From an uncultured Planctomycetales bacterium (lineage in GTDB: Bacteria; Omnitrophota; Gorgyraeia; Gygaellales; Profunditerraquicolaceae): 64,000 bases of DNA. The notes under the pieces are model-generated. The model had not been told where the DNA came from, did not search any database, and worked only from the letters and a program-made list of their open reading frames with translations. Below, in pieces: positions 8,999 through 61,580 of this stretch (position 1 is its first letter; each line of letters opens with the position of its first letter). The DNA is taken from assembly GCA_964487475.1 (NCBI GenBank), contig CAZAPM010000010.1:3005-67004 (forward strand). Direction: 5' to 3'. Both the position numbers and the translations under genes were made by a program.

Positions 8999-9007
8999 AA
9001 GGATGCC

Positions 9008-13741: not shown

Positions 13742-16414
13742 TTAGCCTAAGACTATTTCGATGATGTTCGAGGATCGGGTGGCTTTTTTGAGGAGATCGT
13801 TGCGGGGGATGGTGATGCTTTTGGATCCGGCGGCCAGCGGGCTGCCGTTTATGGCTGCGGCGACGATGATGTATTCGCCGTATTCCTTTCCTGCTTTGTT
13901 GAGGAAGCGGACGGTGATCTTTTTTCCGGCAAAGGTGAGGCGGACGGATATCTCGTTGCGGGAACCGAACTGTTTCTTTACGAGCTTTGGCTCGATCCGC
14001 AGGTCGCCGCGTTCGCCTCTCACGCCGAAGATCTCGGTCAGATAGGTGAGCATCAGCCAGCTGGCGGAGCCGGTAAGGTAGCTGTACATCCCGCGTCCCT
14101 CGGCGTTGAAGTATTCGGGCAGGCAGGGGTAGATACGGCTCTCCGCCGTCTCGACGCTCATCCGGCGGAGGGAATCGATCACCTCGAAGCCTTCCTTGAC
14201 GAATCCCCGGCGGTACAGTCCGTTGGCGAACATCACGGCCATATGGGAGAAGACCGCGCCGTTCTCCTTTTCCCCGTAGACGAAGGAGAATGCGCGGCCC
14301 AGGTCGTGCTGTTCCCCGCCGAAATCGGTGTTCAGGCGGAACCCGCCGCGTTTTTTATCCTGCAGGTATTTTTTTGCGGCGGCAAAGATCAAGGGGATCT
14401 GTTCGTCCGTGGCCACTCCCGACATCACGGAGAAGGTCTGACCGGTCAAAGTCATGCGTATGCGCGTGCCGGAAGAGGAGCCTTCCACCCGGCAGCCGCG
14501 GTTATCGTAGTAGCCGTTATAGAAGCCTTCCTTGAGCCATTCCTTTGCCCGGACGTGCGCGGTTATCCACTCCGCCTTCTTGGTCAGGTCTTTGGCCAGC
14601 GCCTCCGGGTCGAGCTCGACCGTTTCGCCGCTGATCCTTTTCCCGGCTATTTCGAAGTAATGGTTGAGCAGGGCGGTTTTTGAGTCCGCCGAGCCGTAGT
14701 CTATCGGATTATGCAAAGTGTCGAGCAGCAGGAGGATCTCTTTGGCCACGGTGACGCTTTTTACCCCGAGGCTCTTCAGCAGCCGGCTTAAGGCATGGAG
14801 GTTGGAGGCATAGAGGCAGGTAAAGGCGACGCTTTCACCCCGTTCCCTGGCCATGTCCAGCCCGTCGTTCCAGTCCGCGCCTTCCAGCCGGATGTGGTTG
14901 TGCTCTCCGACGTTGAAGAACTGCACCAGATGCTGGATCAGGATATGCTCGAGCACGGTGCCTTCGTATACTTCCCCGTGGGAGGTGGTCAGCCAGTGGT
15001 CCTGTTGCGGCTCCCATTCCAGGTCGAGGGCGCGGCTGCGGGCAAGCTGACGGTCCTTGAAGTAGGGAATGCGCTCGAAGAGGAGGGATTCGTCCCCGCT
15101 TTGGTTAAGGTAGAGCAGCGTGGTGATGAAGGGCCAGATGCCGTGGTCCATCCATACCCGCGAGATGTTGTTGCGGTCGGCGATGAACTCGCCGGGTCTC
15201 TGGCCGATGATGGTCGCGTTCGAACCATCGATGCGCACGCCCTTGAAATTGTTCAGGAGCAAAGGCTTGACCTCATCCGGATTGTTCAGGATCAGGGAAA
15301 GCGCGTCCTGCCAGAGGTCCCGCCAGCCGCGGCCTCCCCGTCCGTAATCGAAGTCCGGGAGGAAGGAGCAGCCGAAGATCTTGCGCAGGAGCGGCTGGAT
15401 GCTCACCCAGCGCAGCCAGTTGTCGAATTGGGGGTCGCTGCTGGAGACCGAAATATCCGAGGAAACCCGTCCCCAGTAGGCTTTGGTCTTATCCAGGGCT
15501 TCGGCGACCTTCTCCGGAGTGTTCAGTCGTGCGAATATGCGATCGGCGTCCGCGGTATTCTGCGTGATACCCAGAAGCAGGATAAAGGTACAGCTTTTCC
15601 CGGGTGCCAGGGTCAGGGGCGCGAAACGCAGCCCTGCCATCGGCTCTTTGCCCTGTCCGGGGAACTCCTTGTCCGGATTTTTTTGCGCGTACACCGCTTC
15701 CGGCATGAGCAGGTCCCCGGAAGCGCCGCAAAATTCCTCCTGGGTGGGAAACACCGCCAGGGGAGCGGCGCTCTTCGGGCCGCATCCGTACACGAAATAG
15801 GAGGTGGAATTCTTATGGTGCCCCGCTTCGTCGAAGACCAGGGTGGGGGTGACTATGACCCCGTGCGAGCGGATGCGGGAGCGCACCAGCAGCGACGTGA
15901 CGTGGCGATGGTCGCGCAGGTTATCCGCCGCTCTGGCGTAGAGGGGGATGGCTGCGGTCGGGGTGAAGGATACGGGTTTGGAGGTGATGTTGGTAAGGGT
16001 GACCTGCATCACTTCGACCGGAGCGTCGGGAATGAAGGAAAGTATCTGCGCTTCCAGGCCGACGGATTTGTTCTTCCGGATGGTCTTATGCCAGAGCAGT
16101 CCTGCTTCCAGCCGGGATCCGTCTTTGAGGTTGCGCGCTTCCCGCGAAACACCGGTCGCGGACCAGACATTGCCGTTCTTGAGGCGTACCCAGAAATTCC
16201 GGCTGCTCATCGAGGTGCCGAGGCTGTTGCGGGTAACGGGTTCGAGCAGGAAGAAGCTGTTGCCGGTTTTCAAGTCTCCGTGCAGGTCGGGAGTGACGGA
16301 GGCCATGAGGGGTGTCTGGTTGCAAAGGGGGAAATACAGCGTGCGCAGCGAATGCGCATGGTCGCTGTGAAAAGTGCCCATATCGTCCACAAAATTCCAG
16401 AGCGGCTTTTTCAT
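13742..16414 (-). CDS. large glycoside hydrolase/phosphorylase-like protein (GH94-like, cellobiose/cellodextrin phosphorylase superfamily)
   Basis: The only coherent minus-strand ORF. (alpha/alpha)6-barrel-like sequence with EGADWNDGLDM, which I recall resembling the GH94 catalytic-Asp context. Start uncertain: ATG at 16414 or 16450. Confidence 0.55.
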   Translation of the reverse strand: MKKPLWNFVDDMGTFHSDHAHSLRTLYFPLCNQTPLMASVTPDLHGDLKTGNSFFLLEPVTRNSLGTSMSSRNFWVRLKNGNVWSATGVSREARNLKDGSRLEAGLLWHKTIRKNKSVGLEAQILSFIPDAPVEVMQVTLTNITSKPVSFTPTAAIPLYARAADNLRDHRHVTSLLVRSRIRSHGVIVTPTLVFDEAGHHKNSTSYFVYGCGPKSAAPLAVFPTQEEFCGASGDLLMPEAVYAQKNPDKEFPGQGKEPMAGLRFAPLTLAPGKSCTFILLLGITQNTADADRIFARLNTPEKVAEALDKTKAYWGRVSSDISVSSSDPQFDNWLRWVSIQPLLRKIFGCSFLPDFDYGRGGRGWRDLWQDALSLILNNPDEVKPLLLNNFKGVRIDGSNATIIGQRPGEFIADRNNISRVWMDHGIWPFITTLLYLNQSGDESLLFERIPYFKDRQLARSRALDLEWEPQQDHWLTTSHGEVYEGTVLEHILIQHLVQFFNVGEHNHIRLEGADWNDGLDMARERGESVAFTCLYASNLHALSRLLKSLGVKSVTVAKEILLLLDTLHNPIDYGSADSKTALLNHYFEIAGKRISGETVELDPEALAKDLTKKAEWITAHVRAKEWLKEGFYNGYYDNRGCRVEGSSSGTRIRMTLTGQTFSVMSGVATDEQIPLIFAAAKKYLQDKKRGGFRLNTDFGGEQHDLGRAFSFVYGEKENGAVFSHMAVMFANGLYRRGFVKEGFEVIDSLRRMSVETAESRIYPCLPEYFNAEGRGMYSYLTGSASWLMLTYLTEIFGVRGERGDLRIEPKLVKKQFGSRNEISVRLTFAGKKITVRFLNKAGKEYGEYIIVAAAINGSPLAAGSKSITIPRNDLLKKATRSSNIIEIVLG

Positions 16415-16443
16415 GGGAAGTAATCTATCACAGTTGCAACCCG

Positions 16444-16585
16444 TATGCAAGCAGTATTAGGGACGCCCCTAAAGGGGACGCCCCTGAAGGCGCCCCTAAA
16501 GGGGACGCCCCTGAAGGGGACACCCCTTACCCGAAAACAGGGGTGTCCCCTCTGAGAGCGTCCCCTTTGAGGGCGTCCCTAAATG
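16444..16585. repeat. tandem plus inverted GGGGACGCCCCT(R)AAG repeat array forming a large palindrome
   Basis: Four direct copies of AGGGGACGCCCCTgAAg-like units. A perfect 13-bp hairpin AGGGGACACCCCT...AGGGGTGTCCCCT follows, then mirrored copies GCGTCCCCTTTGAGGGCGTCCCT. Confidence 0.7.
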
Positions 16586-16602: not shown

Positions 16603-17298
16603 ATGAAAAGGGGATTCCCGAATAAGGTCAAGGCCGTCATCTTCGATATGGACGGGGTCATCACCAACACCATGCCGTACCACTATGAGGCCTGGCGGAT
16701 GGCTCTGGCCGAAGCAGGGGTAAAGGTGAACTGTTATGATATTTACCTGCGCGAAGGCCAGGACGGCATCACGAGTGTGAGGGAGATACTGGCAAAATAT
16801 CGCGTGCCCTTTACCGTGCGCTCCGCGCGTCAACTGCTGGCGCGCAAGGAAACCCTCTTCAAAGGGATGGTCAGGGTGCGGTTCATCAAAGGCAGCCGGC
16901 CTTTCCTGCGCAGGCTTTTACGCACCGGGGTGCAACTGGCCTTGGTGACCGGCACTTCCCGCCACGAGATGGAACGCATCCTTCCCCGTCCGCTGCGCGA
17001 GCTTTTCTCCGTGACGGTCACCGGAGACGAGGTGGCTCGCGGGAAGCCTTTTCCCGATCCTTTCCGCAAGGCGCTGCGGGGCTTACGCCTTACACCCGGC
17101 GAAGCGGTGGTGATCGAGAACGCGCCCTTCGGGATCGAGTCCGCGGTTTCCGCCGGGCTCTTCTGTATCGCCCTGACCACATCCCTTCCCCGCGCGCATC
17201 TGCGCCGCGCCCACGCGATCGTGCGGGATTTCGGGGAATTGCAGAAGTATTTGAACAAACAGGCGTTAAGGAGTATAATACACAGCTATGGCAGGTAA
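16603..17298 (+). CDS. HAD-superfamily hydrolase (beta-phosphoglucomutase-like subfamily IA)
   Basis: Motif I VIFDMDGVITNT at residues 12-23. Motif II/III (LALVTGTS...GDE...KP.PD) is typical of HAD-IA. Confidence 0.75.
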   Translation: MKRGFPNKVKAVIFDMDGVITNTMPYHYEAWRMALAEAGVKVNCYDIYLREGQDGITSVREILAKYRVPFTVRSARQLLARKETLFKGMVRVRFIKGSRPFLRRLLRTGVQLALVTGTSRHEMERILPRPLRELFSVTVTGDEVARGKPFPDPFRKALRGLRLTPGEAVVIENAPFGIESAVSAGLFCIALTTSLPRAHLRRAHAIVRDFGELQKYLNKQALRSIIHSYGR

Positions 17299-22327: not shown

Positions 22328-23050
22328 ATGGAAGATAAAAAATTCGCGGGGGTGCTGAAAAGGGCGGTTTCCTCCTGGCAGGAGGGGTTGGGTGCGCGCG
22401 CAGCGTCGCATCCTCCGGAGGAGCTCGTTGCCGCGTTCGCCGAAGGCAGGCTTCAGGGGAAGGATATGACCGAGGTCATGGCGCATCTTTGCGTGTGCGA
22501 CCTTTGCCTGGCGGGATATGCCGCAGCCCAGGGGGCCATTCATGAGCCTTTGGTCCAGGTCCCGGAAGCGCTCCGGCAGCGCCTGGATGCGCTGGCGAGG
22601 GACCCCTCTGCCGCAGGATTCGTGCCCAAGGCGTTCCATATTGCCATACTGCTCAAGGAAAAAGCCTTCGAGCTCCTTTCTGCGACGGGTGATGTGCTCG
22701 TGGGCCAGGAGTATGTGCCCGGTGCGCTGGTGCGCGGCAAGCATCAGGGGGATTTTCCCGATACGCTGGTGGTGGTCAAGGATATGGAGCGGGTACGCAT
22801 GAGCATTAAGTGCGAGGTGCGGGGCGGCAAAGACCTGGCGTTGACCGTGGAGGTCACCGAAAAAGAGACTGCCAGGCCCTGCGCGCACGCCCGCATCAGC
22901 CTGTGGCGTGAAGGGGTCGAGCTGGAGTCTCTGGCCTCGGACCGGGGTGCGGTGTCATTCGAGCATGTGGGCGCGGCACGGTATAATGTGCGTGCTGAGG
23001 CTCCTGCGGGTACCCTGGCAGGGGAAGTGTCTTTGGAGATCAGGGAGTGA
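22328..23050 (+). CDS. putative ZAS-type anti-sigma factor (HxxxCxxC)
   Basis: Immediately downstream of the ECF sigma. HLCVCDLC zinc-binding anti-sigma motif near the N-terminus. No TM. RBS GGGTGAGG. Confidence 0.55.
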   Translation: MEDKKFAGVLKRAVSSWQEGLGARAASHPPEELVAAFAEGRLQGKDMTEVMAHLCVCDLCLAGYAAAQGAIHEPLVQVPEALRQRLDALARDPSAAGFVPKAFHIAILLKEKAFELLSATGDVLVGQEYVPGALVRGKHQGDFPDTLVVVKDMERVRMSIKCEVRGGKDLALTVEVTEKETARPCAHARISLWREGVELESLASDRGAVSFEHVGAARYNVRAEAPAGTLAGEVSLEIRE

Positions 23051-25275
23051 GCATGCCGGGAAAAGACTCCGTATCCCGTCCGATGGTCTTGGAGGTGCTT
23101 TCCCAGGACCCCCGGCTGGCGATGAGCCTTTTCTTCCAGGATGAGTCGGGGCATACCGTGCGTTACTACCACCAGCGGCTGGTCGATCCCCGGCAGATGG
23201 AAAGTCTGAGCCGCGAAGTGACCGGCATCCTTTATAAATCCTACCTCGTCGGACCCCGTCAGGAGCACATCCAGAATTCCCTCAAGAAGGTCGGGCAGAT
23301 GATGTGGGACCATTTCCTTGCCCGGCAGGTGAAAGAGGAGCTGCTCGCGCAATCCGGGGGAGAGCTTTCCCTGGTGATCGACGAATCCCTGGTGCGGGTG
23401 CCCTGGGAGCTGATGTATGACGGGCAGGATTTTTTGTGCGTGAAATTCAGCGTAGGCCGGCTGGTGCGGGCTTCCCGCCAGGCCGAAGCGATCCGTTACC
23501 GGCAGATGCATACCTCTGCCCGTATGCTGGTGATCGCCAATCCGACCGGAGGGCTTCCCGCCGCGTACCAGGAAGGGGTGTGCATCCGTGATCAGCTCGA
23601 CGGCAAGCGCCGGGATATTTCCGTGGACCTGCGGGCGGAGGAGGCGGACAGTCTGTACCTGAAAAAGAACCTGCGCGACTATGATATCGTGCATTTTGCC
23701 GGGCACTGCGAATACGACACCACCCAGCCGCACCGCGCCGGATGGGCCTTGAAGGACGGACTGCTTAATTTCCAGGATGTGCTGATGATGGGGGAGGGCC
23801 GGACGGCGATGCCCTCGATCGTTTTCTCCAACGCCTGCCAGTCCGCGCAGGTGATGGAAACCGGGCCGGCGGCATTCGACCAGCAGCACCGCACCTACAG
23901 TTTCGCCTCCAGTTTCCTTTTTGCGGGAGTGCGGCATTATATCGGTACGGTCGGTAAGGTGGATGACCGGGCGAGTCTGAGTTTTGCCCTGGCGTTCTAC
24001 AAGGCGCTGGCCAAGGGAAAGGCTACCGGTGAATGCGTGCGGCAGGCGCGCATATCACTGATGCGCGAATACGGGACCGCCAATCTTGCCTGGGCCCAGT
24101 ACCTGATGTACGGCGATCCCGGCCATGTCCTCATCAAGAAGCTTCCTCCCAAAAAGAAACTGGCGCGTCATTTATCCGCTCCTCCGGGCTGGATGAAGAA
24201 AGCCGGGGTGGCGGCGGCAGCGGCGGCGGTGTTCGTGGCGGTCGCGGGATCGGTGCTGGCGCTCCGGCCGCAGGAGAGGATCCTTCTGGTAAGGGCGAAG
24301 ACATACCTTTCCCAGGGGAATAATCAGGAGGCGGTGGCGGCAGCGGAGATGATCACCGCCAGGCGGGCGGGGGCTCTGGCCGCGTATCCGGTGCTCTTCG
24401 AAGGGTATGTCCGGCTGGGGAAGAAGGAAAAGGCGCGGCAGGCGCTCATGGCCTATGCGCTGTTAAGCGAAAAACACCGCGCGTACGAGAACCTGGCAGA
24501 TGCCTATATCTCCCTGGGGTGGTTCCATTACCTGGGAGGAGAGTACGAGAAAGCCATGGCTTTCTATGAAAAAGCGTTATCCGTATCCCGGCAGCAGCAG
24601 GACCTCCTGCATGAGGCGGTCGCCCTGCGGCGCATGGCGGTATGGCACATCGATAAGGGGGATAACGGCAGGGCGCTGGAACTGCTTTCCCGAAGTGTGG
24701 AGATCCATTCCCGTTTCGCCAATGATCCGGAGCATCAGTATCACATGGCGTGCGCGTATTTCGACATGGGGCTGGTGTTCATCAATAAGAACGAATTCGA
24801 GGTCGCCAGGCAGTTCTACCGCAAGAGCGCGGAAGGTTTCCAGAAGTTGAAGCGGGACAACGAGCTCAGCGATTATTACTTCAATCTGGGGGAGATTTTC
24901 CTCTTCGAGAAGCAGTACCAAAAGGCGAAGGAGCATTATGCCGAGGGTTTGCGCATCGACCTGCTGCATGATAACCGGGCGAACCTGCCTTCCGATTACG
25001 TGATGATCGGGGAGCTGTCCTTTGAGATGGGGGATCTGGTCGAAGCGGAGCGCCATTTCCAGCTTGCGGTGCAGGCAGGCAAGCGGATCGATTCCCCGGC
25101 TGACCTGGCGCAGGCGTACCACGGACTGGGACGGATATACGCGAAAAAAAATCATATCTCCAAGGCTAGAGAGCACTTACGACTAGCGCAGGAACTCTAT
25201 TATTCCCTCGGTTTTCCGGAATATCAGCAGATCAAGGAGGAGTACGCGGGCCTGTCTTCAGCCGGCCGGCCTTGA
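23047..25275 (+). CDS. CHAT-domain (caspase-like) protein with a central TM helix and C-terminal TPR repeats
   Basis: CHAT His/Cys dyad contexts DIVHFAGHCEY and IVFSNACQSAQ. TM KKAGVAAAAAAVFVAVAGSVLAL. About 300 aa of TPR-like repeats. An alternative ATG at 23053 has a better RBS. Confidence 0.7.
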   Translation: MSMPGKDSVSRPMVLEVLSQDPRLAMSLFFQDESGHTVRYYHQRLVDPRQMESLSREVTGILYKSYLVGPRQEHIQNSLKKVGQMMWDHFLARQVKEELLAQSGGELSLVIDESLVRVPWELMYDGQDFLCVKFSVGRLVRASRQAEAIRYRQMHTSARMLVIANPTGGLPAAYQEGVCIRDQLDGKRRDISVDLRAEEADSLYLKKNLRDYDIVHFAGHCEYDTTQPHRAGWALKDGLLNFQDVLMMGEGRTAMPSIVFSNACQSAQVMETGPAAFDQQHRTYSFASSFLFAGVRHYIGTVGKVDDRASLSFALAFYKALAKGKATGECVRQARISLMREYGTANLAWAQYLMYGDPGHVLIKKLPPKKKLARHLSAPPGWMKKAGVAAAAAAVFVAVAGSVLALRPQERILLVRAKTYLSQGNNQEAVAAAEMITARRAGALAAYPVLFEGYVRLGKKEKARQALMAYALLSEKHRAYENLADAYISLGWFHYLGGEYEKAMAFYEKALSVSRQQQDLLHEAVALRRMAVWHIDKGDNGRALELLSRSVEIHSRFANDPEHQYHMACAYFDMGLVFINKNEFEVARQFYRKSAEGFQKLKRDNELSDYYFNLGEIFLFEKQYQKAKEHYAEGLRIDLLHDNRANLPSDYVMIGELSFEMGDLVEAERHFQLAVQAGKRIDSPADLAQAYHGLGRIYAKKNHISKAREHLRLAQELYYSLGFPEYQQIKEEYAGLSSAGRP

Positions 25276-26239: not shown

Positions 26240-27745
26240 ATGAAAAAAGGATTATTCGTAGCAGCGGTGTGGATGGTGTGTGCGGGCAGGGCCTGGGCAG
26301 GGGAGTATGCCTGGGAGGAACTTTCCGGAGTGCCTTCCTGTTATAGCGTGCAGGAGGATAAGGATTCCAGCCGCAGGGTGCTGGCAGGCGCGGCAGGCGG
26401 GGTGTACCTTTCCGAGGATGCGGGTATTGGCTTCCGTCAGGTTTTGCGGATATCCGGTTCCTCGGATAAGGATATCCGCGTACAGCAGGACCCGTTTGAT
26501 CTGCGGGTGTGGTATGCCGCGACGGGTTCCGGGTTGTACCGGAGCACGGATTCCGGACGGTCTTGGCAGCGTATCTTCAAGGGAGAGGCTGACGGTTCGG
26601 GGCGGGTGAATTCGGCGGGGGTCGTCCCCGGTTTTTTGTATGCGGCGACCGATGCCGGCCTGTTTCTAAGCCGCGACGGAGGCAGGCGATGGCAGCGGGA
26701 AGCGGGGGCCATCGGCACGCTGCCGGTCATTGCGGTCGCGGGATCGCTGGAGGCAGGGACGGCTATTTTGTGGGCGGTGGCCGCAGGGGAATTATACGTC
26801 TGTACCGCTCCCGGAGCAGGATGGTCGTGCGTAAAGCACCGGGAGGAGTCTTCCCCCTGGATCGAGGACCTGGTCCCGGGAAAGGGGCTGGGGGTGTATG
26901 CGGCGACTTCCCGCGGAGTATTCCTGGCAGAGGCGGCAGGGGGGATAAAATTTCAGCGGCTGGCGGTGTACGGACTGTTCTCTTTGGAGATGCGCCGGGT
27001 GTCATTCGATAAGGCGCAGGATACGCTTTATGCGTGCACCGGCTCGTCCGTATTCGTATATGATCGTGAGCGCTGGAAAGAGATAAGTTTCGAACTGCAG
27101 GCGGGGGAGGTACGCGGTATCTCTGCGGCTTCCTCCTTTGCGGTGTATGTCGCGGGGAGCAAGGGGTTGTTCAAGGCGAGCATCGTGCCGGAAACCTTCC
27201 GCGGGGAAATATCCGCGCAGGATCCGGTCCCCGGGATCGGTGAAGTGCAGCAGGCGGCGATCGCGTATGCGCAGGTGGATCCGGAGATGGTGGCGCGATG
27301 GCGAAGGCAGGCATCGGCCAAAGCCTGGATGCCGCAGTTATCCGTATCCTTTGCGCGCAACACCAGCGACCTTTGGCATTGGGAGAGCGGGTCGACCACC
27401 AAAAGCTGCGACGATGCCCTGATGCGGGGTAGGGATTCCCTGGATTGGGACGTGCGCGTAAGCTGGGACCTTGCCGAGGTGGTGTGGAACAAGGACCAGG
27501 CTTCCATCGATGCGCGGGCACGGTTGCTCTCGGACTTACGGGAACATCTGCTCGAAGAGGTGACCAGGCTTTATTATGAGCGCAAGAAGCTGCTGCAGGA
27601 TCCCGGGGGAGCCACCCTGGAGGCCAGGGCGGGAAAGAAGGCGGAGCAGGAGCTTAAGGTCGCTGAACTGACGGCTCTGCTGGACGGATATACCGGAGGA
27701 TTTTTTTCCGGGCGTTCCGTGCAAAAAGGTATCGAAAGGGATTGA
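26240..27745 (+). CDS. secreted BNR/Ycf48-like beta-propeller repeat protein with C-terminal coiled-coil region
   Basis: Signal peptide. Repeated SxDxGxxW motifs (LSEDAGIGF, STDSGRSWQ, SRDGGRRWQ). RBS GGAGG. Confidence 0.6.
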   Translation: MKKGLFVAAVWMVCAGRAWAGEYAWEELSGVPSCYSVQEDKDSSRRVLAGAAGGVYLSEDAGIGFRQVLRISGSSDKDIRVQQDPFDLRVWYAATGSGLYRSTDSGRSWQRIFKGEADGSGRVNSAGVVPGFLYAATDAGLFLSRDGGRRWQREAGAIGTLPVIAVAGSLEAGTAILWAVAAGELYVCTAPGAGWSCVKHREESSPWIEDLVPGKGLGVYAATSRGVFLAEAAGGIKFQRLAVYGLFSLEMRRVSFDKAQDTLYACTGSSVFVYDRERWKEISFELQAGEVRGISAASSFAVYVAGSKGLFKASIVPETFRGEISAQDPVPGIGEVQQAAIAYAQVDPEMVARWRRQASAKAWMPQLSVSFARNTSDLWHWESGSTTKSCDDALMRGRDSLDWDVRVSWDLAEVVWNKDQASIDARARLLSDLREHLLEEVTRLYYERKKLLQDPGGATLEARAGKKAEQELKVAELTALLDGYTGGFFSGRSVQKGIERD

Positions 27746-27747
27746 TC

Positions 27748-28863
27748 ATGGAATTCGATCTGCTTTCTCTGGTGTTTATGATTACCCAGGCGGTCACTGC
27801 CGTGATCGCCATAGTGTGGCTGCTTCTGCATGGCCGCCGCCAGTCCGATCAATCAAAGGTAAGCCAGCTGCAGGAGGCGCTTGCGGCCAAGGAAGCGGAG
27901 CTCGCGTGTCTTCTCAGTAATCAGGAGAAGTCCCGTCAGGAGGCATGCCGCCGCGCTTCGTTGCAGCCACAGGCACCGTCGCAACCTTTGCCAAAACGGT
28001 CTGCGGTCCCTGACGTTCCTGACGGAGGGAAGGATAAAAAGATCGGGGAGATACTTCTGGAGCATCATTTCATCGTTAAGGACATCCTGGACAGGGCGCT
28101 GGAGCATCAAGTGCAGCACGGAGGAACGATCACGCAGTATCTGCTTGCCTACGGGTATATCGATGAAAGCCAGTTGGCCAAGTGCCTTTGCTCCCAGTTT
28201 AAGATACCGTACCTGCCCCTTTCTTCATGCGATATCCCGGAGCGGGTGATAAAACTCCTTCCGGTCGATATCGCGGAAAAATACCTGGCCATACCCGTGG
28301 ACCAGGCCGGGGATTCATTGATGGTGGTGATGGCCGATCCTTTGGACCCCAAAGCGCTGGCTACGATAAAGAAGGTGACCGGGTGTACGTTAAAGCCTTT
28401 TGTGGGAATACTTTCCGAGATAGTGGGAGCCCTGGAGACGTATTATCATGTGAATATCCGCGGCGCAGCCTCATCCAAGAGCGCATATCCTTTCGTAGTC
28501 GAGTCTCCTAACTTCCGGGGTATCGAGCGTCGGGAGGCGATACGCTTCAAGTGCGAGATGGATGTGCAGGTCCCGATAAAAGGTATCTATCAGAGCCAGA
28601 AGACTAAGGACATCAGCCGCGACGGATTTTGCTTCGAATCTGATTGCGCGCCACCCATGGGGTCGATCCTTACCATGGAAGTGTATCTGCCGAAAGAATT
28701 TAGCTCACTTCCCATCAGGGCGCTGGTGCAGGTGGTGCGTATCCTGGAACGGGGAGAACACCGATATGAGATAGGCGTTAAGACCGTGGAGATCGCAAAG
28801 CATGACCTGGCGGCCATCATTAATTACGCTTCCAGCAAGATGTTGGGAGAAAAAAAGGGATAA
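27748..28863 (+). CDS. membrane-anchored MshEN-domain plus PilZ-domain protein (putative c-di-GMP receptor)
   Basis: N-terminal TM. MshEN motif KIGEILLEHHFIVKDILDRALEHQ plus a second GspE-N-like repeat. C-terminal PilZ motifs RREAIR (RxxxR) and DISRDG (DxSxxG). Confidence 0.7.
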   Translation: MEFDLLSLVFMITQAVTAVIAIVWLLLHGRRQSDQSKVSQLQEALAAKEAELACLLSNQEKSRQEACRRASLQPQAPSQPLPKRSAVPDVPDGGKDKKIGEILLEHHFIVKDILDRALEHQVQHGGTITQYLLAYGYIDESQLAKCLCSQFKIPYLPLSSCDIPERVIKLLPVDIAEKYLAIPVDQAGDSLMVVMADPLDPKALATIKKVTGCTLKPFVGILSEIVGALETYYHVNIRGAASSKSAYPFVVESPNFRGIERREAIRFKCEMDVQVPIKGIYQSQKTKDISRDGFCFESDCAPPMGSILTMEVYLPKEFSSLPIRALVQVVRILERGEHRYEIGVKTVEIAKHDLAAIINYASSKMLGEKKG

Positions 28864-56546: not shown

Positions 56547-56586
56547 ACCCCCCGGAGAGGCGACTCTCCGGGGGGATTTTTTTAAC
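56547..56586 (+). terminator. rho-independent terminator after the porin-like gene
   Basis: CCCCCCGGAGAGgcgacTCTCCGGGGGG followed by ATTTTTTT. Confidence 0.8.
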
Positions 56587-56619: not shown

Positions 56620-58191
56620 ATGCTCTACCTTTCATTCATATTCCATCAGCACCAGCCGTACTACAAAAACCTCCTGACCAACGAGACCGAGCTTCCCTGG
56701 GTGCGTCTGCACGGCACCAAGGATTATCTCGACATGGTTTTGATGCTCGAGAGGTTCCCCAAGATCAAACAGGTGTTCAACCTTGTGCCGTCCCTCCTGG
56801 AGCAGGTGGAGGATTATCACCGTCATACGGTCAAGGATAAATGGCTTGAGCTTTCCTATAAACCTGCCAAGCAGCTCAACAGCCAGGACCACCATATCAT
56901 CCTCGAAAGGTTCTTCAGCATCAACCGCGAACGGGTGATCTCCACCCATCCGCGTTACTACGAGCTGTACTTCAAGAAGGAATCCGGCCAGCATTTCACG
57001 GACCAGGACTTCCTGGACCTGCAGGTATGGTTCAATTTGGCCTGGATCGACCCGATGTTCCGCCAGAGCAACCCCGTGTTAAAGGCTCTGGTGGAGAAGG
57101 ACCGGGGCTTTACGGAAGAGGAGAAGAAGCAGCTGCTGGACGAGAGCCTCAAGATCCTCGAAGGGATAATTCCGGCTTACAGGAAGTTCCAGGAGCAGGG
57201 GCAGATCGAGGTGATCGTCAACCCCTACTACCATCCCATACTGCCGCTTTTGTACAATACCATGATCGCCAAAGAGGCCAATCTGCATTCCCTGCTTCCC
57301 GAGGAGGGTAAGCACTTTGCGTATCCCCAGGACGCGCAGGCCCAGATCAACGATGCCATTTCCTTCTACCGGGAGCGCTTCGGCATAGCGCCGGCCGGGA
57401 TGTGGCCTTCCGAGCAGTCGGTGTGCGAGCATATCATCCCGTTTTTCCTGCAGGCGGGGCTCAAATGGATCGTGACGGACGAGGGGATGCTCTTCAAATC
57501 CCTGAAGCACAAGAAGCGCTCCACCGACCTCTTGTACCAGCCGCACCTGCTCAAACGCAAGGACGGGGAGATGGCGGTGATCTTCCGGGACCGCAACTTA
57601 TCCGATATGATCGGGTTTCAGTACGCGCAGTGGCAGCCGAAATCCGCGGTGGACGATTTCATGCATCATCTGGAGAATATCGCCGCCACCTATAAAGGCA
57701 AGGATATCCTGGTGGCCGTGGCCATGGACGGGGAGAACGCCTGGGAGTATTTTGCCAATGACGGGCATGATTTCCTGGAGTACCTCTATGAGCGGCTTTC
57801 GGACGCTTCCTTCCTCCAGTGCACGACGATCAGCGAATACTTGAAGAAGTTCCCGCCTGTCCATGAGATCCCGCACATGGCTGCCGGTTCCTGGATCTTC
57901 TCCGATTTCGGGAAGTGGATGGGCAAGCCCCAGAAGGTGAAGGCCTGGGAGTGCCTGGCGCAGGCGCGCAACAAGCTCGCGGAGATCGAGCGCGATCCGG
58001 TGCGTAAGGGAGCGCTCAAGGATGCGTGGCCGCTTATCTGGAAGCAGATGTTCGTGTGCGAGGGCAGCGACTGGTACTGGTGGTACGGTGACGATCAGCC
58101 TGATTTCGACCTCCTTTTCCGGAAACACCTGATCAATTTTTATTCACTTTTGGGCGAAGAAGTCCCGCATTATCTGCATTATCCGCTGTAA
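56620..58191 (+). CDS. glycoside hydrolase family 57 alpha-glucan enzyme (amylase / 4-alpha-glucanotransferase / branching-enzyme type)
   Basis: N-terminal FIFHQHQPYY and HGTKDY are characteristic of GH57. 523 aa. Confidence 0.8.
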   Translation: MLYLSFIFHQHQPYYKNLLTNETELPWVRLHGTKDYLDMVLMLERFPKIKQVFNLVPSLLEQVEDYHRHTVKDKWLELSYKPAKQLNSQDHHIILERFFSINRERVISTHPRYYELYFKKESGQHFTDQDFLDLQVWFNLAWIDPMFRQSNPVLKALVEKDRGFTEEEKKQLLDESLKILEGIIPAYRKFQEQGQIEVIVNPYYHPILPLLYNTMIAKEANLHSLLPEEGKHFAYPQDAQAQINDAISFYRERFGIAPAGMWPSEQSVCEHIIPFFLQAGLKWIVTDEGMLFKSLKHKKRSTDLLYQPHLLKRKDGEMAVIFRDRNLSDMIGFQYAQWQPKSAVDDFMHHLENIAATYKGKDILVAVAMDGENAWEYFANDGHDFLEYLYERLSDASFLQCTTISEYLKKFPPVHEIPHMAAGSWIFSDFGKWMGKPQKVKAWECLAQARNKLAEIERDPVRKGALKDAWPLIWKQMFVCEGSDWYWWYGDDQPDFDLLFRKHLINFYSLLGEEVPHYLHYPL

Positions 58192-58285
58192 ATCCGCCTT
58201 TTTCGCAAAAGGAGCCCCTACTCAATATCTAGTGCCTGGAGCCTCAAAAAACCACTAAGTATGGTTATTTTTTGCTCTAAAGTTA

Positions 58286-58314
58286 TTGACATGAAAATGT
58301 TTTTATGTTATATA
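58286..58314 (+). promoter_or_regulatory. sigma70-like promoter (TTGACA-17-TATATA)
   Basis: TTGACAtgaaaatgtttttatgtTATATA in an AT-rich intergenic region. Confidence 0.5.
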
Positions 58315-58357
58315 AACAATAGGCATCATACTCCACTGGCGCATTCATCTTACCTTT

Positions 58358-58954
58358 TTGCGAGACAATATCTTTATGCAGGCAACCATGGATAAAAAGG
58401 ATATTTACGAGCATCTGGCAAAGATATATCTTGATGCTTCCCTCAAAGGTTCCTCCCGGATCAAGGCACGTAAACCATTCTTTACACCCGCAGTGATCGG
58501 TATCTCCGTTGCGTCAGCGGTGGTGCTGATCCTGTTGTCGCTGTTCTTCTTTTTCCCCAAGTCCCCGCGTAACCTGCAGACGGTACTGGAGATCAACCAG
58601 AACCTGATGCGCATCAATTATAACTTCGATCCCGCCAAGAAGGAGACCATCTCCTTTGCCTTCAACAAGATGGACATGTCCAAATTCAAAGCGGTGGAGT
58701 TCAGGGCCAAGCGGCAGAATTACGCCGACGAAGCGTCTCTGCGTGTGGAGATCTCCAACGGTTTCAAGGAGCGCTCGGAAGTGTACGTGAAGAGCATTCC
58801 CCATGTATGGACGGCGTACCGGTTCCCGCTGCAGGATTTCAAGAGGATCAGCGACTGGTCCGATATGCGCGAGCTGGCGTTTTCCGTCGAGGAATGGAAC
58901 AGCAAAGAGAAAAACGGACTTGTGTTGATCGAGAATGTGAGATTTGTGAGGTAG
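58358..58954 (+). CDS. membrane-anchored hypothetical protein
   Basis: One TM (VIGISVASAVVLILLSLFFFF). No recognised domain. Alternative starts at 58376 or 58388. Confidence 0.45.
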   Translation: MRDNIFMQATMDKKDIYEHLAKIYLDASLKGSSRIKARKPFFTPAVIGISVASAVVLILLSLFFFFPKSPRNLQTVLEINQNLMRINYNFDPAKKETISFAFNKMDMSKFKAVEFRAKRQNYADEASLRVEISNGFKERSEVYVKSIPHVWTAYRFPLQDFKRISDWSDMRELAFSVEEWNSKEKNGLVLIENVRFVR

Positions 58955-59024
58955 GATGTGTTCTGCGGACACCCGCCCTTATCGGATGGGGCGGTGTTCG
59001 CCTACTGCGAAGGAGGGTTTACGT

Positions 59025-60161
59025 ATGCGCATTATTTCGGTCACGAACCAAAAGGGGGGATGCGGCAAAACTACGACCGCGGTGAACCTGGCGGCATGCC
59101 TGGCGGTCAACGAACGAAAGGTGCTGCTCATTGACCTTGACCCTCAAGCGCATGCGACCCTGGGACTGAACATCAAGCATGACCTCTCCATGTATAACGT
59201 GCTCTCGAAGCTCACCAGCCGCAAGGTGCGCCTGCAGGAGATCATCAAGAACGTGGGGGCGAATTTCGACATCGCGCCCTCCAGCATGATCTTAAGCACC
59301 ATGGAGCAGGAGCTCGCCGGAGAGATCAGCCGCGAATCCCGCCTCTGGGAAGTGCTGCAGTCCTTCGAAGCGAAGTACGATTATGTCATCATCGACTGCC
59401 CTCCGAACTTAGGCATCCTTACCATCAATGCCATCCGCGCCTCCTCCGAGGTCATTATTCCCGTCGAGGCGAGCCGTTTCTCCCTGGAGGGCTTGAGCCA
59501 GCTCAACGAGATCATCGGTCTCATCACCGAGCGCCTCAACCATAAAGTGACCACGAACGTGCTGGTGACCAATTTCGATTCCCGGCTGCGTCATTCCTTC
59601 AAGGTGCTGGACCATATCCGCGCCACCTTCAAGAACAAGCTTTTCAGCACCATGGTGCATGTCAACGTCAAGCTCAAGGAAGCCCAGTCCGAAGGCACGC
59701 ACGTGCTCAACTACGACAAGTATTGCCGCGGCGCCAAGGATTACTTCAGCCTTTCCCGCGAGATCATCACGGCCGAATCCGGGCCTAAGGCGGAGAAAGC
59801 AGCCGCGGTCAAGCCGGCGAAAGCGCCTGCGGCCAAGCAGGACAAGATGGCGGCGCTCTCCGACAAGATGAACGAGCTGCTCAAGGAGAACCTGCCGGGC
59901 CTGAACGAGATCGTGCTTTCGATCTATTCTCCCGACGCCAAGGAAGTGCACGTGGCCGGGGATTTCAACAACTGGGCGGTGGACAGCTCCAGCCTGATGG
60001 AGAAGAAGGACGGCACCTGGACCAAGCGGCTGGCCTTAAACGGCGGAAAATACCATTACCGTTTCGTGGTGGACGGAGCCTGGGTGGATGATCCTTCGAA
60101 CCCGCAAAAGGAATTGAATCCTTTTGGGCAGACCGATTCTTTGCTTGAGGTCTCTGCGTAA
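59025..60161 (+). CDS. ParA/MinD-family ATPase fused to a C-terminal CBM48/AMPK-beta-like (glycogen-binding) domain
   Basis: Deviant Walker A NQKGGCGKTTTAVNLAA with ParA body. Ala/Lys linker. Then VHVAGDFNNW...GTW...KYHYRFVVDGAWVDDPSNP, typical of CBM48/AMPK1_CBM. RBS AGGAGGG. Confidence 0.75.
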   Translation: MRIISVTNQKGGCGKTTTAVNLAACLAVNERKVLLIDLDPQAHATLGLNIKHDLSMYNVLSKLTSRKVRLQEIIKNVGANFDIAPSSMILSTMEQELAGEISRESRLWEVLQSFEAKYDYVIIDCPPNLGILTINAIRASSEVIIPVEASRFSLEGLSQLNEIIGLITERLNHKVTTNVLVTNFDSRLRHSFKVLDHIRATFKNKLFSTMVHVNVKLKEAQSEGTHVLNYDKYCRGAKDYFSLSREIITAESGPKAEKAAAVKPAKAPAAKQDKMAALSDKMNELLKENLPGLNEIVLSIYSPDAKEVHVAGDFNNWAVDSSSLMEKKDGTWTKRLALNGGKYHYRFVVDGAWVDDPSNPQKELNPFGQTDSLLEVSA

Positions 60162-60175
60162 GCGTACCGGCTCAG

Positions 60176-60496
60176 ATGACTGAAACGGATACCGAGGTCC
60201 GCGAAGGCAGGTTCTTCGCGATAGTGGCCTATATCAGTTTTTTCTGCATGCTGACGTTCCTGCTGAAGAAAGAGAACAAGTTCGCTCTTTTTCACGCCAA
60301 GCAGGGGCTGGTGCTTTTCGTGCTGGAATCCGCAGCGCTCATACTTTCCATCATCCCGCTCCTGGAATTCCTCCTGCGTACCGTAGGGGCCGCGCTCTTC
60401 ATCGGGTTTTCGGTGTGGGGCATGGTGCAGGCGTGGCGGGGGGCGTATGCCAAAATGCCGCTGGTCTCGAAAGTGGCGGAGGAGATCATACTCTGA
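60176..60496 (+). CDS. DUF4870-like small membrane protein
   Basis: FFAIVAYISFF...LFHAKQGLVLFVLE pattern. Two or three TM segments. Confidence 0.55.
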   Translation: MTETDTEVREGRFFAIVAYISFFCMLTFLLKKENKFALFHAKQGLVLFVLESAALILSIIPLLEFLLRTVGAALFIGFSVWGMVQAWRGAYAKMPLVSKVAEEIIL

Positions 60497-60990
60497 TGCA
60501 GGCGCTTGAGTCGATGAAATCACGGCGCAGCGTGCGCGCGTTCAGCGGGAAGGAAGTGCCCTGGGAGAAGATCGAGGCGCTTCTGGAGTGCGCCAGGTAC
60601 GCGCCCACTGCCCGCAACGTCCAGCCCTGGGAGTTCGTGGTGGTGACCGCGGTTCCTACCCTCAAGAAGCTGGGGGCGATCGCCCAGAACGGGTTCTTCA
60701 TCGCCGAGGCGCCGTGCTGCATCGCGGTCTTCTGTGCGGACACCAAATACTATCTCGAGGACGGATGCGCGGCGACGGTCAATATCCTGACCGCGGCGCA
60801 CGCTTTGGGGCTGGCTGCCTGCTGGGTTGCGGGGGATAAGAAGGAGTATTGCGAGCAGGTGCGGGAGATACTGGCTGCGCCTGCGGGAGTAAAGCTGGTA
60901 AGCCTGATCCCGCTGGGGTATGCGCAGGAGCATCCCGGAGCGCCGGTAAAGCGCCCGCTTAAAGAGATGATACACCAGGAGAAGTGGTAA
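60496..60990 (+). CDS. nitroreductase-family protein
   Basis: SRRSVRAFSGKEVP...ARYAPTARNVQPWEFVVV is the classic nitroreductase N-terminus. Confidence 0.8.
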   Translation: MQALESMKSRRSVRAFSGKEVPWEKIEALLECARYAPTARNVQPWEFVVVTAVPTLKKLGAIAQNGFFIAEAPCCIAVFCADTKYYLEDGCAATVNILTAAHALGLAACWVAGDKKEYCEQVREILAAPAGVKLVSLIPLGYAQEHPGAPVKRPLKEMIHQEKW

Positions 60991-60991
60991 C

Positions 60992-61354
60992 ATGCCTAAA
61001 GCCAAGCCGAAGGCGAAGGCCATTCGTAAAAAAAAGGTCGCGCCGAAGTCCCTGAAGAAGGCAAAGCCCCTGAAATCCCCGAAGGGGACGAAGAGGACGA
61101 AGGAGGCGAAGGCCAAGGAGATCGGGGTCATCGCTCATTACTTCCCCAAGGTCATGGCAGCGGTAGTCAAGCTTAAAGGCCCTTTATCCGTGGGGGATAC
61201 GGTGGCTATCAAGGGCCATACCACGGATTTTACGCAGCAGATCATCTCTATTCAGCTCGACCATGCCTCGTTGCAGTCGGCAAAGAAGGGGCAGGAGATT
61301 GGTTTTCAGGTGGTTTCCCGGGTCCGCCGGGGCGATTCCGTGACCAAGAAGTAA
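60992..61354 (+). CDS. hypothetical protein with Lys-rich histone-H1-like N-terminus
   Basis: MPKAKPKAKAIRKKKVAPKSLKKAKPLKSPKGTKRTKEAKAKE, then a roughly 75-aa globular part. Confidence 0.5.
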   Translation: MPKAKPKAKAIRKKKVAPKSLKKAKPLKSPKGTKRTKEAKAKEIGVIAHYFPKVMAAVVKLKGPLSVGDTVAIKGHTTDFTQQIISIQLDHASLQSAKKGQEIGFQVVSRVRRGDSVTKK

Positions 61355-61394
61355 CGCGCTGGTCAGGCGCGCAGTCATTACACAGGAGGAAGTC

Positions 61395-61580
61395 ATGCGT
61401 CTTTCAGAGATAGAGCAGAAAGCCCGTTCGATAGGTATCAAGGATACCTGGAAATTCTCCAGAAAAGAGCTTATCCGCGAGATCCAGCGCAAGGAGGGCA
61501 ACCCCGTTTGTTTCTCTTCAAACTTGAGTTTTTGCGACCAGTTCGCCTGCAGCTGGCGTGAAGACTGCCTGCACTCGTAA
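61395..61580 (+). CDS. small protein with Rho-N/SAP-like N-terminal helix pair and C-terminal four-Cys cluster
   Basis: LSEIEQKARSIGIKDTWKFSRKELIREI, then CFSSNLSFCDQFACSWREDC. RBS AGGAGGAAG. Confidence 0.45.
   Translation: MRLSEIEQKARSIGIKDTWKFSRKELIREIQRKEGNPVCFSSNLSFCDQFACSWREDCLHS

Follow-up and report, generated by a model that had tools for sequence, protein, structure and literature searches.

The window, the whole 64,000-nucleotide stretch of DNA analysed here, comes from an uncultured Omnitrophota bacterium and encodes on its + strand a ParA-type ATPase fused to a carbohydrate-binding module. The fusion gene is the second gene 3' of one encoding a GH57 glycoside hydrolase, an arrangement that the original prediction described correctly. 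All three genes, including the intervening p198, lie on the + strand, and the features of the region are as follows.

56548..56575, + strand: intrinsic-terminator-like hairpin (12-bp stem with 10 G-C pairs, T-run), 3' of an Alginate_exp porin gene
56620..58191, + strand: GH57 glycoside hydrolase, 523 aa (Pfam Glyco_hydro_57, 4e-66)
58388..58954, + strand: p198, 188 aa, candidate partner protein (alignment of orthologues, AF2 model)
59010..59016, + strand: Shine-Dalgarno AAGGAGG of the fusion gene (sequence)
59025..59780, + strand: ParA (Soj-type) ATPase domain, residues 1-252 (Pfam, Foldseek, phmmer)
59781..59906, + strand: variable linker (residues 253-272) and conserved amphipathic helix (residues 273-289) (pLDDT, orthologue alignment)
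59907..60161, + strand: CBM48 / AMPK-beta-type module, residues 295-378, and stop codon (Pfam, phmmer, AF2)
60176..60496, + strand: p106, small membrane protein, beginning 14 nt past the fusion (weak DUF4870/MamF_MmsF match)
60496..61580, + strand: nitroreductase, p120 and p61, the remainder of the putative transcription unit (ORFs, Pfam, synteny)

The hairpin is the boundary at which a new transcription unit begins, and no comparable terminator occurs between it and position 61580. The p198 ORF, unannotated, spans 58358-58954, with its true start at the ATG at 58388. The fusion ORF is listed as 58956-60161 (401 aa); its true start is the ATG at 59025, eight bases past the AAGGAGG, and the resulting 378-aa product is identical to database protein P0001. 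Downstream, the nitroreductase start overlaps the stop codon of p106, which is kept 3' of the fusion in most Omnitrophota loci. Of the remaining genes, p120 has an EF-Tu-domain-2-like barrel and a Lys-rich tail, and p61 encodes a small protein rich in Cys; both are kept downstream in most loci, though their membership of the functional module is uncertain. An Alginate_exp (AlgE-type) porin gene lies 5' of the unit in most loci. The block from porin/APRT to p120 keeps its order throughout the phylum, so some of these genes may be neighbours by common descent and not because they form a functional operon. Searches with the PADLOC anti-phage defence models returned only sub-threshold P-loop noise at the locus.

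At least 589 species-level genomes encode a relative of the fusion; apart from one Thermodesulfobacteriota clade they belong almost entirely to Omnitrophota, and all of the hosts are uncultured. The thousands of full-length homologues with the same architecture rule out chance or an assembly artefact, and identity among the listed homologues is 64-73%. We found no description of a ParA fused to a glycogen-binding module in the searchable literature, in agreement with the original prediction, and a 2024 review of the ParA/MinD family makes no mention of glycogen or granule cargo (PMC11407121).

Judged by its sequence, the N-terminal domain is a true ParA/MinD family ATPase of the Soj type with complete catalytic motifs. 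The match to Pfam AAA_31 (1.9e-55, residues 24-198 in the numbering of the 401-aa ORF) bears out the earlier call of a ParA carrying KGGCGKTT. This deviant Walker A (K10, K15), the Walker A' residues D37/D39 and Walker B D124 are invariant among the 28 orthologues aligned. Foldseek matches range over Soj, ParA, MinD, FlhG, McdA and BcsQ structures (E 2e-21 to 1e-12), with the Soj/ParA structures ahead (E 2e-21 to 4e-18, 36-42% identity, TM 0.78-0.83 normalised to target length) and BcsQ, MinD and FlhG much weaker (E about 1e-13 versus 1e-21 for Soj). The best matches in sequence and fold are the Soj proteins of B. subtilis, T. thermophilus and H. pylori and ParA 8ray, to which phmmer aligns the domain residue by residue (1.5e-55). 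The fusion shares with these chromosomal proteins the signature Lys of the deviant Walker A, the catalytic Asp residues and the basic position of B. subtilis Soj R189, which is K216 here and K/R in the orthologues examined; K232, R235 and K238 are also conserved and may contribute to a basic DNA-binding face. In contrast to chromosomal ParA/Soj, the fusion carries an added linker and CBM48, and every member has the Walker A Cys. No C-terminal membrane-targeting helix was found on the ATPase in the alignment or the AF2 model. Since the fusion protein lacks both a signal peptide and a TM segment, its CBM module faces the cytoplasm.

The linker is rich in Ala, Lys and Pro and disordered (pLDDT below 50 for residues 253-276), and the conserved amphipathic helix that follows it has the consensus EKKMNEILKEELPKL. 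Linker length differs among orthologues, at roughly 40-130 residues across the fusions, and 267-360 aa separate Walker A from the CBM Trp.

Profile matches identify the C-terminal module as a true CBM48/AMPK-beta type domain and a putative glucan binder, as had been proposed. Over residues 315-400 of the 401-aa ORF, AMPK1_CBM scores 47.6 bits (2e-12, cut-off 26.8) and CBM_48 scores 34.4 bits (2.8e-8, cut-off 22.4), and the orthologue at L080 likewise lies above both curated cut-offs. The module contains GDFNNW, which like KGGCGKTT is present as originally quoted, as well as YHYRFVVDGAW. The AF2 model places beta-sandwich strands over residues 295-376 (pLDDT 88-95), the architecture anticipated for the module; the whole-model fold search is dominated by the ParA domain and yields no separate list of structural matches for the CBM. 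The nearest solved sequence relatives are the glycogen-binding modules of AMPK beta1/beta2 (PDB phmmer, best 2e-9), and CBM48 relatives among solved structures span E 2e-9 to 5e-7. In alignment, W317, R346, W353, F367 and D371 line up with W100, K126, W133, L146 and N150 of AMPK beta1. The conserved Trp/Lys glucan-binding residues foreseen in the original prediction are largely there: both glucan-contact Trp positions are kept in 78 of 78 orthologues, and of the 63 loci scored at the Lys126-equivalent, 43 have K/R and 20 have Q, with Gln predominating in the GH57-less Omnitrophota clade. The 146-equivalent is F/Y and the 150-equivalent N/D across orthologues. The module thus resembles the CBM48s of AMPK beta, SEX4, LSF1, pullulanase and the GlgB N-domains in its beta-sandwich and in these five residues, kept or conservatively replaced, although it differs from the AMPK beta CBM in the Gln at position 126 in one clade. 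Whereas those CBM48s belong to a kinase scaffold, a phosphatase or glucan-active enzymes, this one sits on a P-loop positioning ATPase. Its nearest environmental relatives are tandem CBM arrays, one of them fused to a GH13 alpha-amylase.

The GH57 protein is single-domain and AaApu-like. Among solved structures it comes closest to AaApu of Aquifex aeolicus (8zyi/9jlq), and the strength of this match (E about 1e-73) suggests an amylopullulanase-type enzyme. The conserved regions FHQHQP, GQIEV, MWPSEQSV, MDGENAWEY and VCEGSDWYWW align to AaApu (PMC12106739), and the Glu/Asp dyad is intact (E256 and D352). With conserved region 1 already beginning at residue 8, there is no room for a signal peptide, and a cytoplasmic location is predicted. 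The operon begins with this enzyme in about half of the lineages, including that of the host, and the expected linkage of the fusion to glucan genes stands to that extent: GH57 adjoins p198 in 33 of 65 informative loci. It is missing from the neighbourhood in the other 32, and the linkage fails in the GH57-less Omnitrophota clade and the Thermodesulfobacteriota clade, neither of which has glucan genes near the fusion. Among 148 flanking ORFs surveyed at GH57-less loci, the 25 commonest families include no glycogen enzyme. Glycogen is a plausible cargo in that its synthesis has been inferred from MAGs for most Omnitrophota genera (PMC8542988).

The original prediction held that the adaptor is built into the ATPase, a proposal that overlooked p198. 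Located directly 5' of the fusion in 70 of 78 loci, p198 is its most constant neighbour and bears hallmarks of a ParA partner. Divergent analogues occur at three more loci (L078, L079 and L083), and at L075 and L082 the adjacent protein is a different candidate partner. No match to p198 was found in Pfam, NCBIfam or PADLOC. Its N-terminal helix, MDKKDIYEHLAKIYLDAS, is a near-invariant, charged 18-mer with a Lys-rich patch, helical and amphipathic rather than disordered. One TM helix follows (residues 34-55), then a nine-strand jelly-roll (residues 66-187) resembling CBM11/30/8/28 and CIA30 (AF2 model pLDDT 86; Foldseek PDB matches E 9e-7 to 1e-4). The K+R count is 6.5 before the TM helix versus 2.6 after it, and the N-terminus is predicted to be cytoplasmic and the jelly-roll periplasmic. 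In the ParA family, partners act via charged N-termini (PMC11407121; PMC10241942), and the C-terminal region of the ATPases supplies matrix binding (PMC11407121). By analogy, the features of p198 match those expected of a ParA partner, its putative role.

So, what might a ParA with a glycogen-binding module do? ParA/MinD ATPases are general positioning devices in prokaryotes, and the cargos known to us, DNA and protein assemblies, are bound by way of separate adaptors. We favor, with a rough probability of 45%, the reading that the fusion is an orphan Soj-derived ParA whose ATP-dimer binds glycogen with its two CBM48s, p198 driving the cycle. Its probable job is to tether glycogen or spread it through the cell, and it may serve in positioning or segregation. 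Upon ATP binding, the protein would form the usual ParA sandwich dimer and sit on the nucleoid via its basic face. Each dimer would offer two CBM48s on long tethers, giving an avid, ATP-dependent hold on glycogen particles, which would be held on and spread over the nucleoid, shared at division and accessible to GH57. The charged cytoplasmic N-peptide of membrane-anchored p198 would then touch the dimer and stimulate ATP hydrolysis, releasing the ATPase to be recycled near the membrane. In favour of this reading stand the complete ATPase motifs, the retained glucan-contact residues, the breadth and constraint of the family, the p198 adjacency and the GH57 gene in the same transcription unit. 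Against it, a purely cytoplasmic granule-positioning model leaves the predicted periplasmic sandwich of p198 unexplained, the p198 N-peptide is helical instead of disordered, and the GH57-less loci, the Gln at the Lys126 position in their clade and the phylum-wide synteny of the block also weaken it.

Parts of this scheme have precedents. PhaM/PhaF-type proteins tether PHB granules to the nucleoid, leading to their sharing at division. The concept of a storage granule on the nucleoid is alike, but those proteins are non-ATPases that bind DNA by histone-like tails, whereas here an ATP-cycled ParA would be the link. McdA/McdB of carboxysomes and other orphan ParA systems also pair an ATPase with an adjacent fast-evolving partner (PMC10241942, PMC11407121), the conserved element of which is its charged N-terminus, and they act on a large cytoplasmic body, as proposed here. 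In those systems, however, it is the partner that binds the cargo. In the present case the ATPase itself carries the putative cargo-binding module, the candidate partner is embedded in the membrane, and a polysaccharide would take the place of DNA or a protein assembly as cargo.

Is the fusion instead a chromosome-partition ParA (Soj) with unlinked ParB/parS? Its CBM48 would then be an AMPK-beta-like glycogen sensor that couples segregation or replication control to carbon reserves. The Soj/ParA resemblance and the retained basic residue at the R189 position suit this idea, as do the strong constraint and near phylum-wide spread, which are housekeeping-like, the source databases' label 'chromosome partitioning protein', and the finding of no second ParA in the locus DNA examined. 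However, chromosomal parA normally adjoins parB, and the ParB motif GERRxRA is absent from the window and adjoins the fusion gene in none of 84 loci (912 kb in total), where the constant neighbour is membrane-anchored and has a conserved N-peptide of its own. The ParB-like LGRGL N-terminus of the L075/L082 neighbour implies a Soj-like partner-binding site, but the L075 'LGKGL' protein was rejected as a ParB, being a Walker-A-less FlhG/MinD-like protein. In MAGs of the Thermodesulfobacteriota type, a phylum where canonical parAB is usual, the fusion lies among acyl-CoA metabolism genes, which would fit a supernumerary ParA. We consider a chromosomal role unlikely; if true, an AMPK-like link of chromosome segregation to energy reserves would be equally interesting.

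A quite unlikely variant of the glycogen-binding ParA, suggested by analogy, makes glycogen itself the matrix. CBM48 occupies the matrix-binding position, and the ATP-dimer would bind polyglucan via its two weak CBMs until the p198 N-peptide, MinE/ParB-like, triggered release. MinD offers the parallel of a weak C-terminal matrix-binding element that is avid only in the ATP dimer and is released by a partner peptide (a family rule, PMC11407121), although its element is an amphipathic helix rather than a folded CBM48 on a long linker, and the fusion is nearer to Soj in sequence and fold. If true, this would be the first ParA/MinD system to self-organise on a polysaccharide, and it would set granule number, size or membrane distance in very small cells.

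It is also rather improbable that the ATPase is a BcsQ/TadZ-like envelope organiser, recruited by p198 to the inner membrane to position or assemble a complex (p198, p106, perhaps the porin) for an envelope-crossing polysaccharide, with CBM48 and GH57 receiving or trimming glucan in the cytoplasm. The membrane anchor and predicted periplasmic, CBM-like jelly-roll of p198, the membrane protein p106 and the porin gene 5' of most loci are in keeping with such a machine, and BcsQ-type members, whose structures are among the fold matches, are ParA/MinD-family ATPases tied genetically to polysaccharide secretion (bacterial cellulose in the case of BcsQ) and membrane partners. Yet BcsQ lacks a carbohydrate-binding module and, like MinD and FlhG, matches the fusion far less well than Soj does. 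Domain searches of the unit and its flanks identified no glycosyltransferase/synthase or BcsR/BcsE-type partner, and the unit contains no gene for an ABC transporter or one of any other kind. Moreover, the strong terminator parts the porin gene from the operon, toxin-antitoxin cassettes are interposed between the two in other genomes, the ATPase lacks a membrane-targeting helix, and the Thermodesulfobacteriota fusions occur without p198, p106 or porin. Finally, it is very doubtful that the beta-sandwich is now an E-set/Ig-like protein-protein module, for example docking the ATPase on a protein cargo or GH57: the AMPK CBM also makes regulatory protein contacts, half of the lineages lack glucan gene linkage and many of these have Gln at the Lys126 position, but the invariant stacking Trp pair and the conserved 146/150 positions are hard to explain without sugar binding, and the nearest relatives are multi-copy CBM arrays, one of them on a GH13 amylase.

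Bacterial control of glycogen granule number, placement and inheritance is, to our knowledge, largely unexplored. A phylum-wide ParA with a carbohydrate-binding module would put storage polysaccharide on the list of ParA cargos, with a different wiring, if the orphan glycogen-binding ParA is the correct reading, in which cargo or matrix binding is on the ATPase and the partner is membrane-anchored. In its 90-residue module, its two Trp residues and the 18-residue peptide of its candidate partner, the fusion offers a concrete, testable handle on granule control, and it is a ready 'luggage tag' design for the synthetic positioning of glucan particles.

The fusion of a ParA-type ATPase to a C-terminal CBM48 module is encoded on the + strand in a closely packed run of genes at window 56620-61580. 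The run and the hairpin before it comprise:

56548-56575, + strand: strong terminator-like hairpin, 3' of the upstream Alginate_exp porin gene
56620-58191, + strand: GH57 glycoside hydrolase gene (Pfam 4e-66)
58358-58954 (listed ORF; true start ATG 58388), + strand: p198 gene, for a 188-aa membrane protein with no prior annotation
listed ORF from 58956 (start ATG 59025), + strand: ParA-CBM fusion gene, 378 aa
60176-60496, + strand: p106 gene, for a 106-aa membrane protein, starting 14 nt after the fusion stop
downstream of p106, + strand: nitroreductase gene, a member of the run
60992-61354, + strand: p120 gene, for a Lys-rich 120-aa protein
61395-61580, + strand: p61 gene, for a 61-aa Cys-rich protein

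No second hairpin comparable to that behind the porin gene was found in the window between 56575 and 61580, so the run from 56620 is probably a single transcription unit. Fusion orthologues all start with MRII in the alignment and a perfect AAGGAGG stands eight bases 5' of ATG 59025, which sets the length of the fusion at 378 aa; this product is identical to database protein P0001. Directly downstream, p106 is a small, multi-pass membrane protein with a weak match to PF09685 (formerly DUF4870, now MamF_MmsF), a magnetosome membrane protein family. The p120 protein combines a Lys/Ala/Pro-rich, histone-H1-like N-terminal tail with an EF-Tu-domain-2-like barrel (Pfam 0.002, below cut-off), and the small p61 is Cys-rich at its C-terminus. 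Most Omnitrophota loci keep both 3' of the fusion, and their identity of 50-69% exceeds that of p198.

The N-terminal domain of the fusion is of the AAA_31/ParA type (Pfam 1.9e-55), and its KGGCGKTT deviant Walker A (signature Lys10 and Lys15), Asp37/Asp39 and Walker B Asp124 do not vary across 28 orthologues. In an AlphaFold2 model derived from the 28-orthologue alignment, the structures closest to the ATPase domain are chromosomal Soj/ParA proteins (B. subtilis Soj 9a6n, ParA 8ray, T. thermophilus Soj and H. pylori Soj; E 2e-21 to 4e-18, TM 0.78-0.83 normalised to target length, 36-42% identity), and BcsQ, MinD, FlhG and McdA are far weaker matches (E about 1e-13). Lys216 aligns with the DNA-binding Arg189 of Soj in the residue alignment. 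With catalytic motifs intact, the assignment to Soj-type ParA is firm at the level of sequence. Residues 253-276 are predicted to be disordered, and the length of this linker differs greatly between orthologues, with 267-360 aa separating Walker A from the CBM Trp in the fusions. Between this linker and the CBM lies an amphipathic helix (residues 273-289, window 59841-59891; consensus EKKMNEILKEELPKL), kept in all Omnitrophota orthologues, which might serve CBM packing, dimerisation or membrane binding. The variable Walker A position is Cys in every fusion (84/84 loci), where Soj/ParA have Val; this Cys is a clean family signature, and the NQKGGCG peptide pattern by itself recovers the family.

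At the C-terminus, AMPK1_CBM (2e-12) and CBM_48 (2.8e-8) both exceed the curated Pfam cut-offs, and the CBM48-like module of the original prediction is borne out by the AlphaFold2 model, in which residues 295-378 form a CBM48-type beta-sandwich (pLDDT 88-95). Among solved proteins, the AMPK beta2/beta1 glycogen-binding modules come nearest by sequence (E 2e-9 to 5e-7), followed by a GH13 pullulanase and a neopullulanase and then the CBM48s of SEX4 and LSF1. Fusion segments GDFNNW, YHYRFVVDGAW and NPFGQTDSLL pair with GSFNNW, HQYKFFVDGQW and SQLGTINNLI of AMPK beta. At AMPK beta1 W100, K126, W133, L146 and N150, which we take to be the glucan contacts in the CBM-cyclodextrin structure (1Z0M/1Z0N), the fusion has W, R, W, F and D. 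Neither Trp is replaced in any of the 78 distinct full-length fusions; among sequences matching the residue pattern, position 146 is Phe/Tyr in 67/68 and position 150 Asn/Asp in 68/68. It is firm that the CBM48 is covalently attached, lies in the cytoplasm and keeps its predicted sugar-contact residues.

With helix plus CBM as query, HMMER found 9,195 proteins at E<=1e-3 among 1.84 billion cluster representatives, so the module family is large. The best 150 of these are dominated by proteins with 3-18 tandem CBM copies. Of six top relatives inspected, one is a single-module protein of 106 aa and the other five have 3-6 AMPK1_CBM/CBM48 copies in an array. In one of these five, the array is joined to a GH13 alpha-amylase catalytic domain, which supports alpha-glucan as the ligand class of this CBM subfamily. 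Environmental proteins with 3-18 tandem copies include P0241 (1812 aa), P0310 (6207 aa), P0257 and P0249, and P0254 carries four copies plus a GH13 alpha-amylase domain. The tandem modules are about 40% identical to the CBM on ParA, and a class of ~480 aa with four copies is recurrent.

The architecture that the original prediction drew from one genome is widespread, matching in at least 589 genomes in a scan with one genome per species; hundreds of independent genomes rule out a gene-fusion or assembly artefact. A homologue search found 7,855 proteins at E<=1e-10, and the best 120 of these, the self-match aside, are full-length, share the architecture at 64-73% identity and, wherever named, belong to Candidatus Omnitrophota. 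The best 80 genomic loci match the fusion from residue 1 to about 376; their hosts are mostly labelled Omnitrophota and some auto-labelled 'Planctomycetales', and a few fusions, 42-43% identical, belong to MAGs of Thermodesulfobacteriota or of a 'delta proteobacterium'. Many third-party-annotated (TPA) MAG entries labelled 'uncultured Planctomycetales bacterium' (e.g. L005, L006, L009, L019) have the Omnitrophota-type operon at 64-67% identity and are probably mislabelled Omnitrophota. The Thermodesulfobacteriota-type clade (more than 120 clusters, 80-96% identity) keeps the ATPase-CBM architecture (AMPK1_CBM 4.6e-12), and no cultured host was found among its matches; all fusion hosts are uncultured. 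Conservation of the fusion across Omnitrophota and into a second phylum is firmly established.

The only database names of the fusion are 'AAA family ATPase' and 'chromosome partitioning protein'. No ParA-like protein tied to a glycogen-binding module was found in 8 million full texts, and a 2024 review of the ParA/MinD family does not mention glycogen, granule or carbohydrate cargo (PMC11407121). The component parts are already known; for the joining of ParA to CBM48, the cargo proposed for it and a partner anchored in the membrane, no earlier description is known.

Gene neighbourhoods were surveyed by tblastn and profile searches over 84 loci. The p198 gene immediately precedes the fusion, in the same orientation, in 70 of the 78 loci with enough upstream DNA; three of the rest (L078, L079, L083) carry a divergent analogue of 236-246 aa with a matching layout. 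In most loci p106 follows the fusion, with p120 and p61 farther downstream, and the order in the ~46-54% identity clade is porin, p198, fusion, p106. The pairing of the fusion with a membrane protein bearing an invariant N-peptide is, firmly, near-obligatory in Omnitrophota. GH57, to which the fusion had been tied, lies no more than 1.5 kb upstream in just 33 of the 65 informative loci, most of them from the clade whose fusions are about 57% identical or more, plus a few at 50-52%; the tie stands for those lineages, and the constant neighbour is p198 instead. That an amylopullulanase-type GH57 shares the unit in about half of lineages is secure.

The nearest solved relative of this GH57 is AaApu of Aquifex aeolicus (E about 1e-73), a single-domain amylopullulanase whose substrates are glycogen, pullulan and starch, in which it cuts alpha-1,4 and alpha-1,6 bonds (PMC12106739). 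The Glu/Asp dyad and each of the five conserved regions can be aligned to AaApu, and conserved region 1 begins at residue 8, leaving no signal peptide, so that the enzyme is predicted to be cytoplasmic. CBM position 126 varies with GH57: among 63 loci with enough upstream DNA (Lys/Arg 43, Gln 20), GH57-linked loci have 30 K/R and 1 Q and GH57-less loci 13 K/R and 19 Q (Fisher p about 1e-6, the loci being clades and not independent samples). The expected association with other glycogen genes did not hold in GH57-less loci: a Pfam census of their flanks (148 ORFs, 22 loci) returned porin, TPR, APRT, Pst/PhoU and LacI-type families, with no glycogen enzyme among the 25 commonest. The most divergent fusions have unrelated neighbours (purine synthesis, LOG, UvrD/AddA, PhoH, acyl-CoA metabolism). 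Some of the synteny (porin, APRT, p120) may be a matter of gene order conserved throughout the phylum, not of function.

About 690 homologues of p198 were found, all 'hypothetical', without any Pfam domain and, where an organism is named, from Omnitrophota. Its first 18 residues (MDKKDIYEHLAKIYLDAS) are almost invariant among 30 orthologues with only 43-53% overall identity; beyond them come a Lys-rich patch, a variable TM helix and a ~125-aa domain. The AF2 model (pLDDT 86) has, in order, a helix (3-19), a disordered segment (20-33), the TM helix (34-55) and a sandwich of nine strands (66-187), for which Foldseek against the PDB finds jelly-roll CBM11, CBM30, CBM8, CBM28, CBM22, CBM4 and CIA30, matches so weak (E 9e-7 to 3e-4, 10-15% identity) that they indicate fold class only. 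The K+R count is 6.5 before the TM helix vs 2.6 after it, which by the positive-inside rule would put the sandwich on the periplasmic side and leave the N-peptide cytoplasmic. Partners of ParA/MinD proteins act via charged N-terminal regions, and the ATPase C-terminal region gives matrix binding (PMC11407121, PMC10241942). By analogy, p198 fits the charged-N-terminus rule.

Other lineages have other candidates. Directly after the fusion, the genes in L075 (7128-8045) and L082 (7100-7597), two divergent lineages, encode the N-termini KKLGKGLEDI and RKLGRGLDEV, which we take to be a ParB-type N-terminal motif. The L075 protein is FlhG/MinD-like from residue 64 onward (PDB 4rz2, 6.7e-7), lacks Walker A and is not a ParB; the L075/L082 protein may be a pseudo-ATPase serving as ParA partner. 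Across p198, its analogues and these genes, the fusion is paired with unlike adjacent candidate partners by lineage, a pattern typical of ParA systems. A conserved 145-aa protein (MPFIRKRRIWWEP...SYVVYVSK...) follows the Thermodesulfobacteriota-type fusion in L076 (7167-7604) and L080 (7181-7618); it is FN3/Ig-like by eye with a basic N-terminus, Pfam gives a short spurious C-terminal match, and it could be the partner in that clade.

We favour, at a probability of roughly 45%, a reading of the fusion as an orphan ParA that attaches glycogen to the nucleoid. Its ATP-dimer would present two tethered CBM48s, by which the nucleoid-bound ATPase would hold glycogen particles, and the p198 N-peptide would stimulate hydrolysis and then release. 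Glycogen synthesis has been inferred for most Omnitrophota genera from MAG analyses (PMC8542988). A motif scan of the window and the 84 loci (~13 kb each) found no ParB or second ParA, and the absence of ParB beside any locus, together with the placement of the fusion among metabolic genes in Thermodesulfobacteriota-type MAGs, makes it unlikely that the protein is a chromosomal ParA bearing an AMPK-like glycogen sensor, despite its Soj-like ATPase domain. Somewhat less probable still is a BcsQ-like organiser of an envelope polysaccharide machine: the predicted periplasmic p198 sandwich and the nearby porin gene would suit it, but synthase and transporter genes are absent and a terminator separates the porin gene from the operon. 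Reuse of the CBM fold as a protein-binding module is improbable, being hard to square with two invariant stacking Trp residues. A defence system is ruled out, with no PADLOC match.

In some genomes, toxin-antitoxin and abortive-infection cassettes (PhdYeFM/ParE, AbiEii plus HTH, 23S_rRNA_IVP; L001 5406-5777, L003/L004 3803-5746) are inserted between the porin gene and GH57 with GH57-p198-fusion left intact, which makes this intergenic site an apparent hot spot for insertion. Elsewhere in the window, a 902-aa GH94-superfamily glycoside phosphorylase (13742-16450, - strand; catalytic domain 7.8e-28, supersandwich domain 1.2e-11) adjoins a HAD hydrolase gene (16603-17298, + strand), possibly of beta-phosphoglucomutase type; the pair points to phosphorolysis of the beta-glucan or cellobiose type and has no relation to the alpha-glucan genes. 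Other coding regions of the window specify a CHAT-protease-domain protein with an extended TPR array (23047-25275), an MshEN plus PilZ (c-di-GMP-binding) protein (27742-28863) and, from reading translations, a type IV pilus/type II secretion-like cluster near 2447-11082, none of them linked to the fusion.
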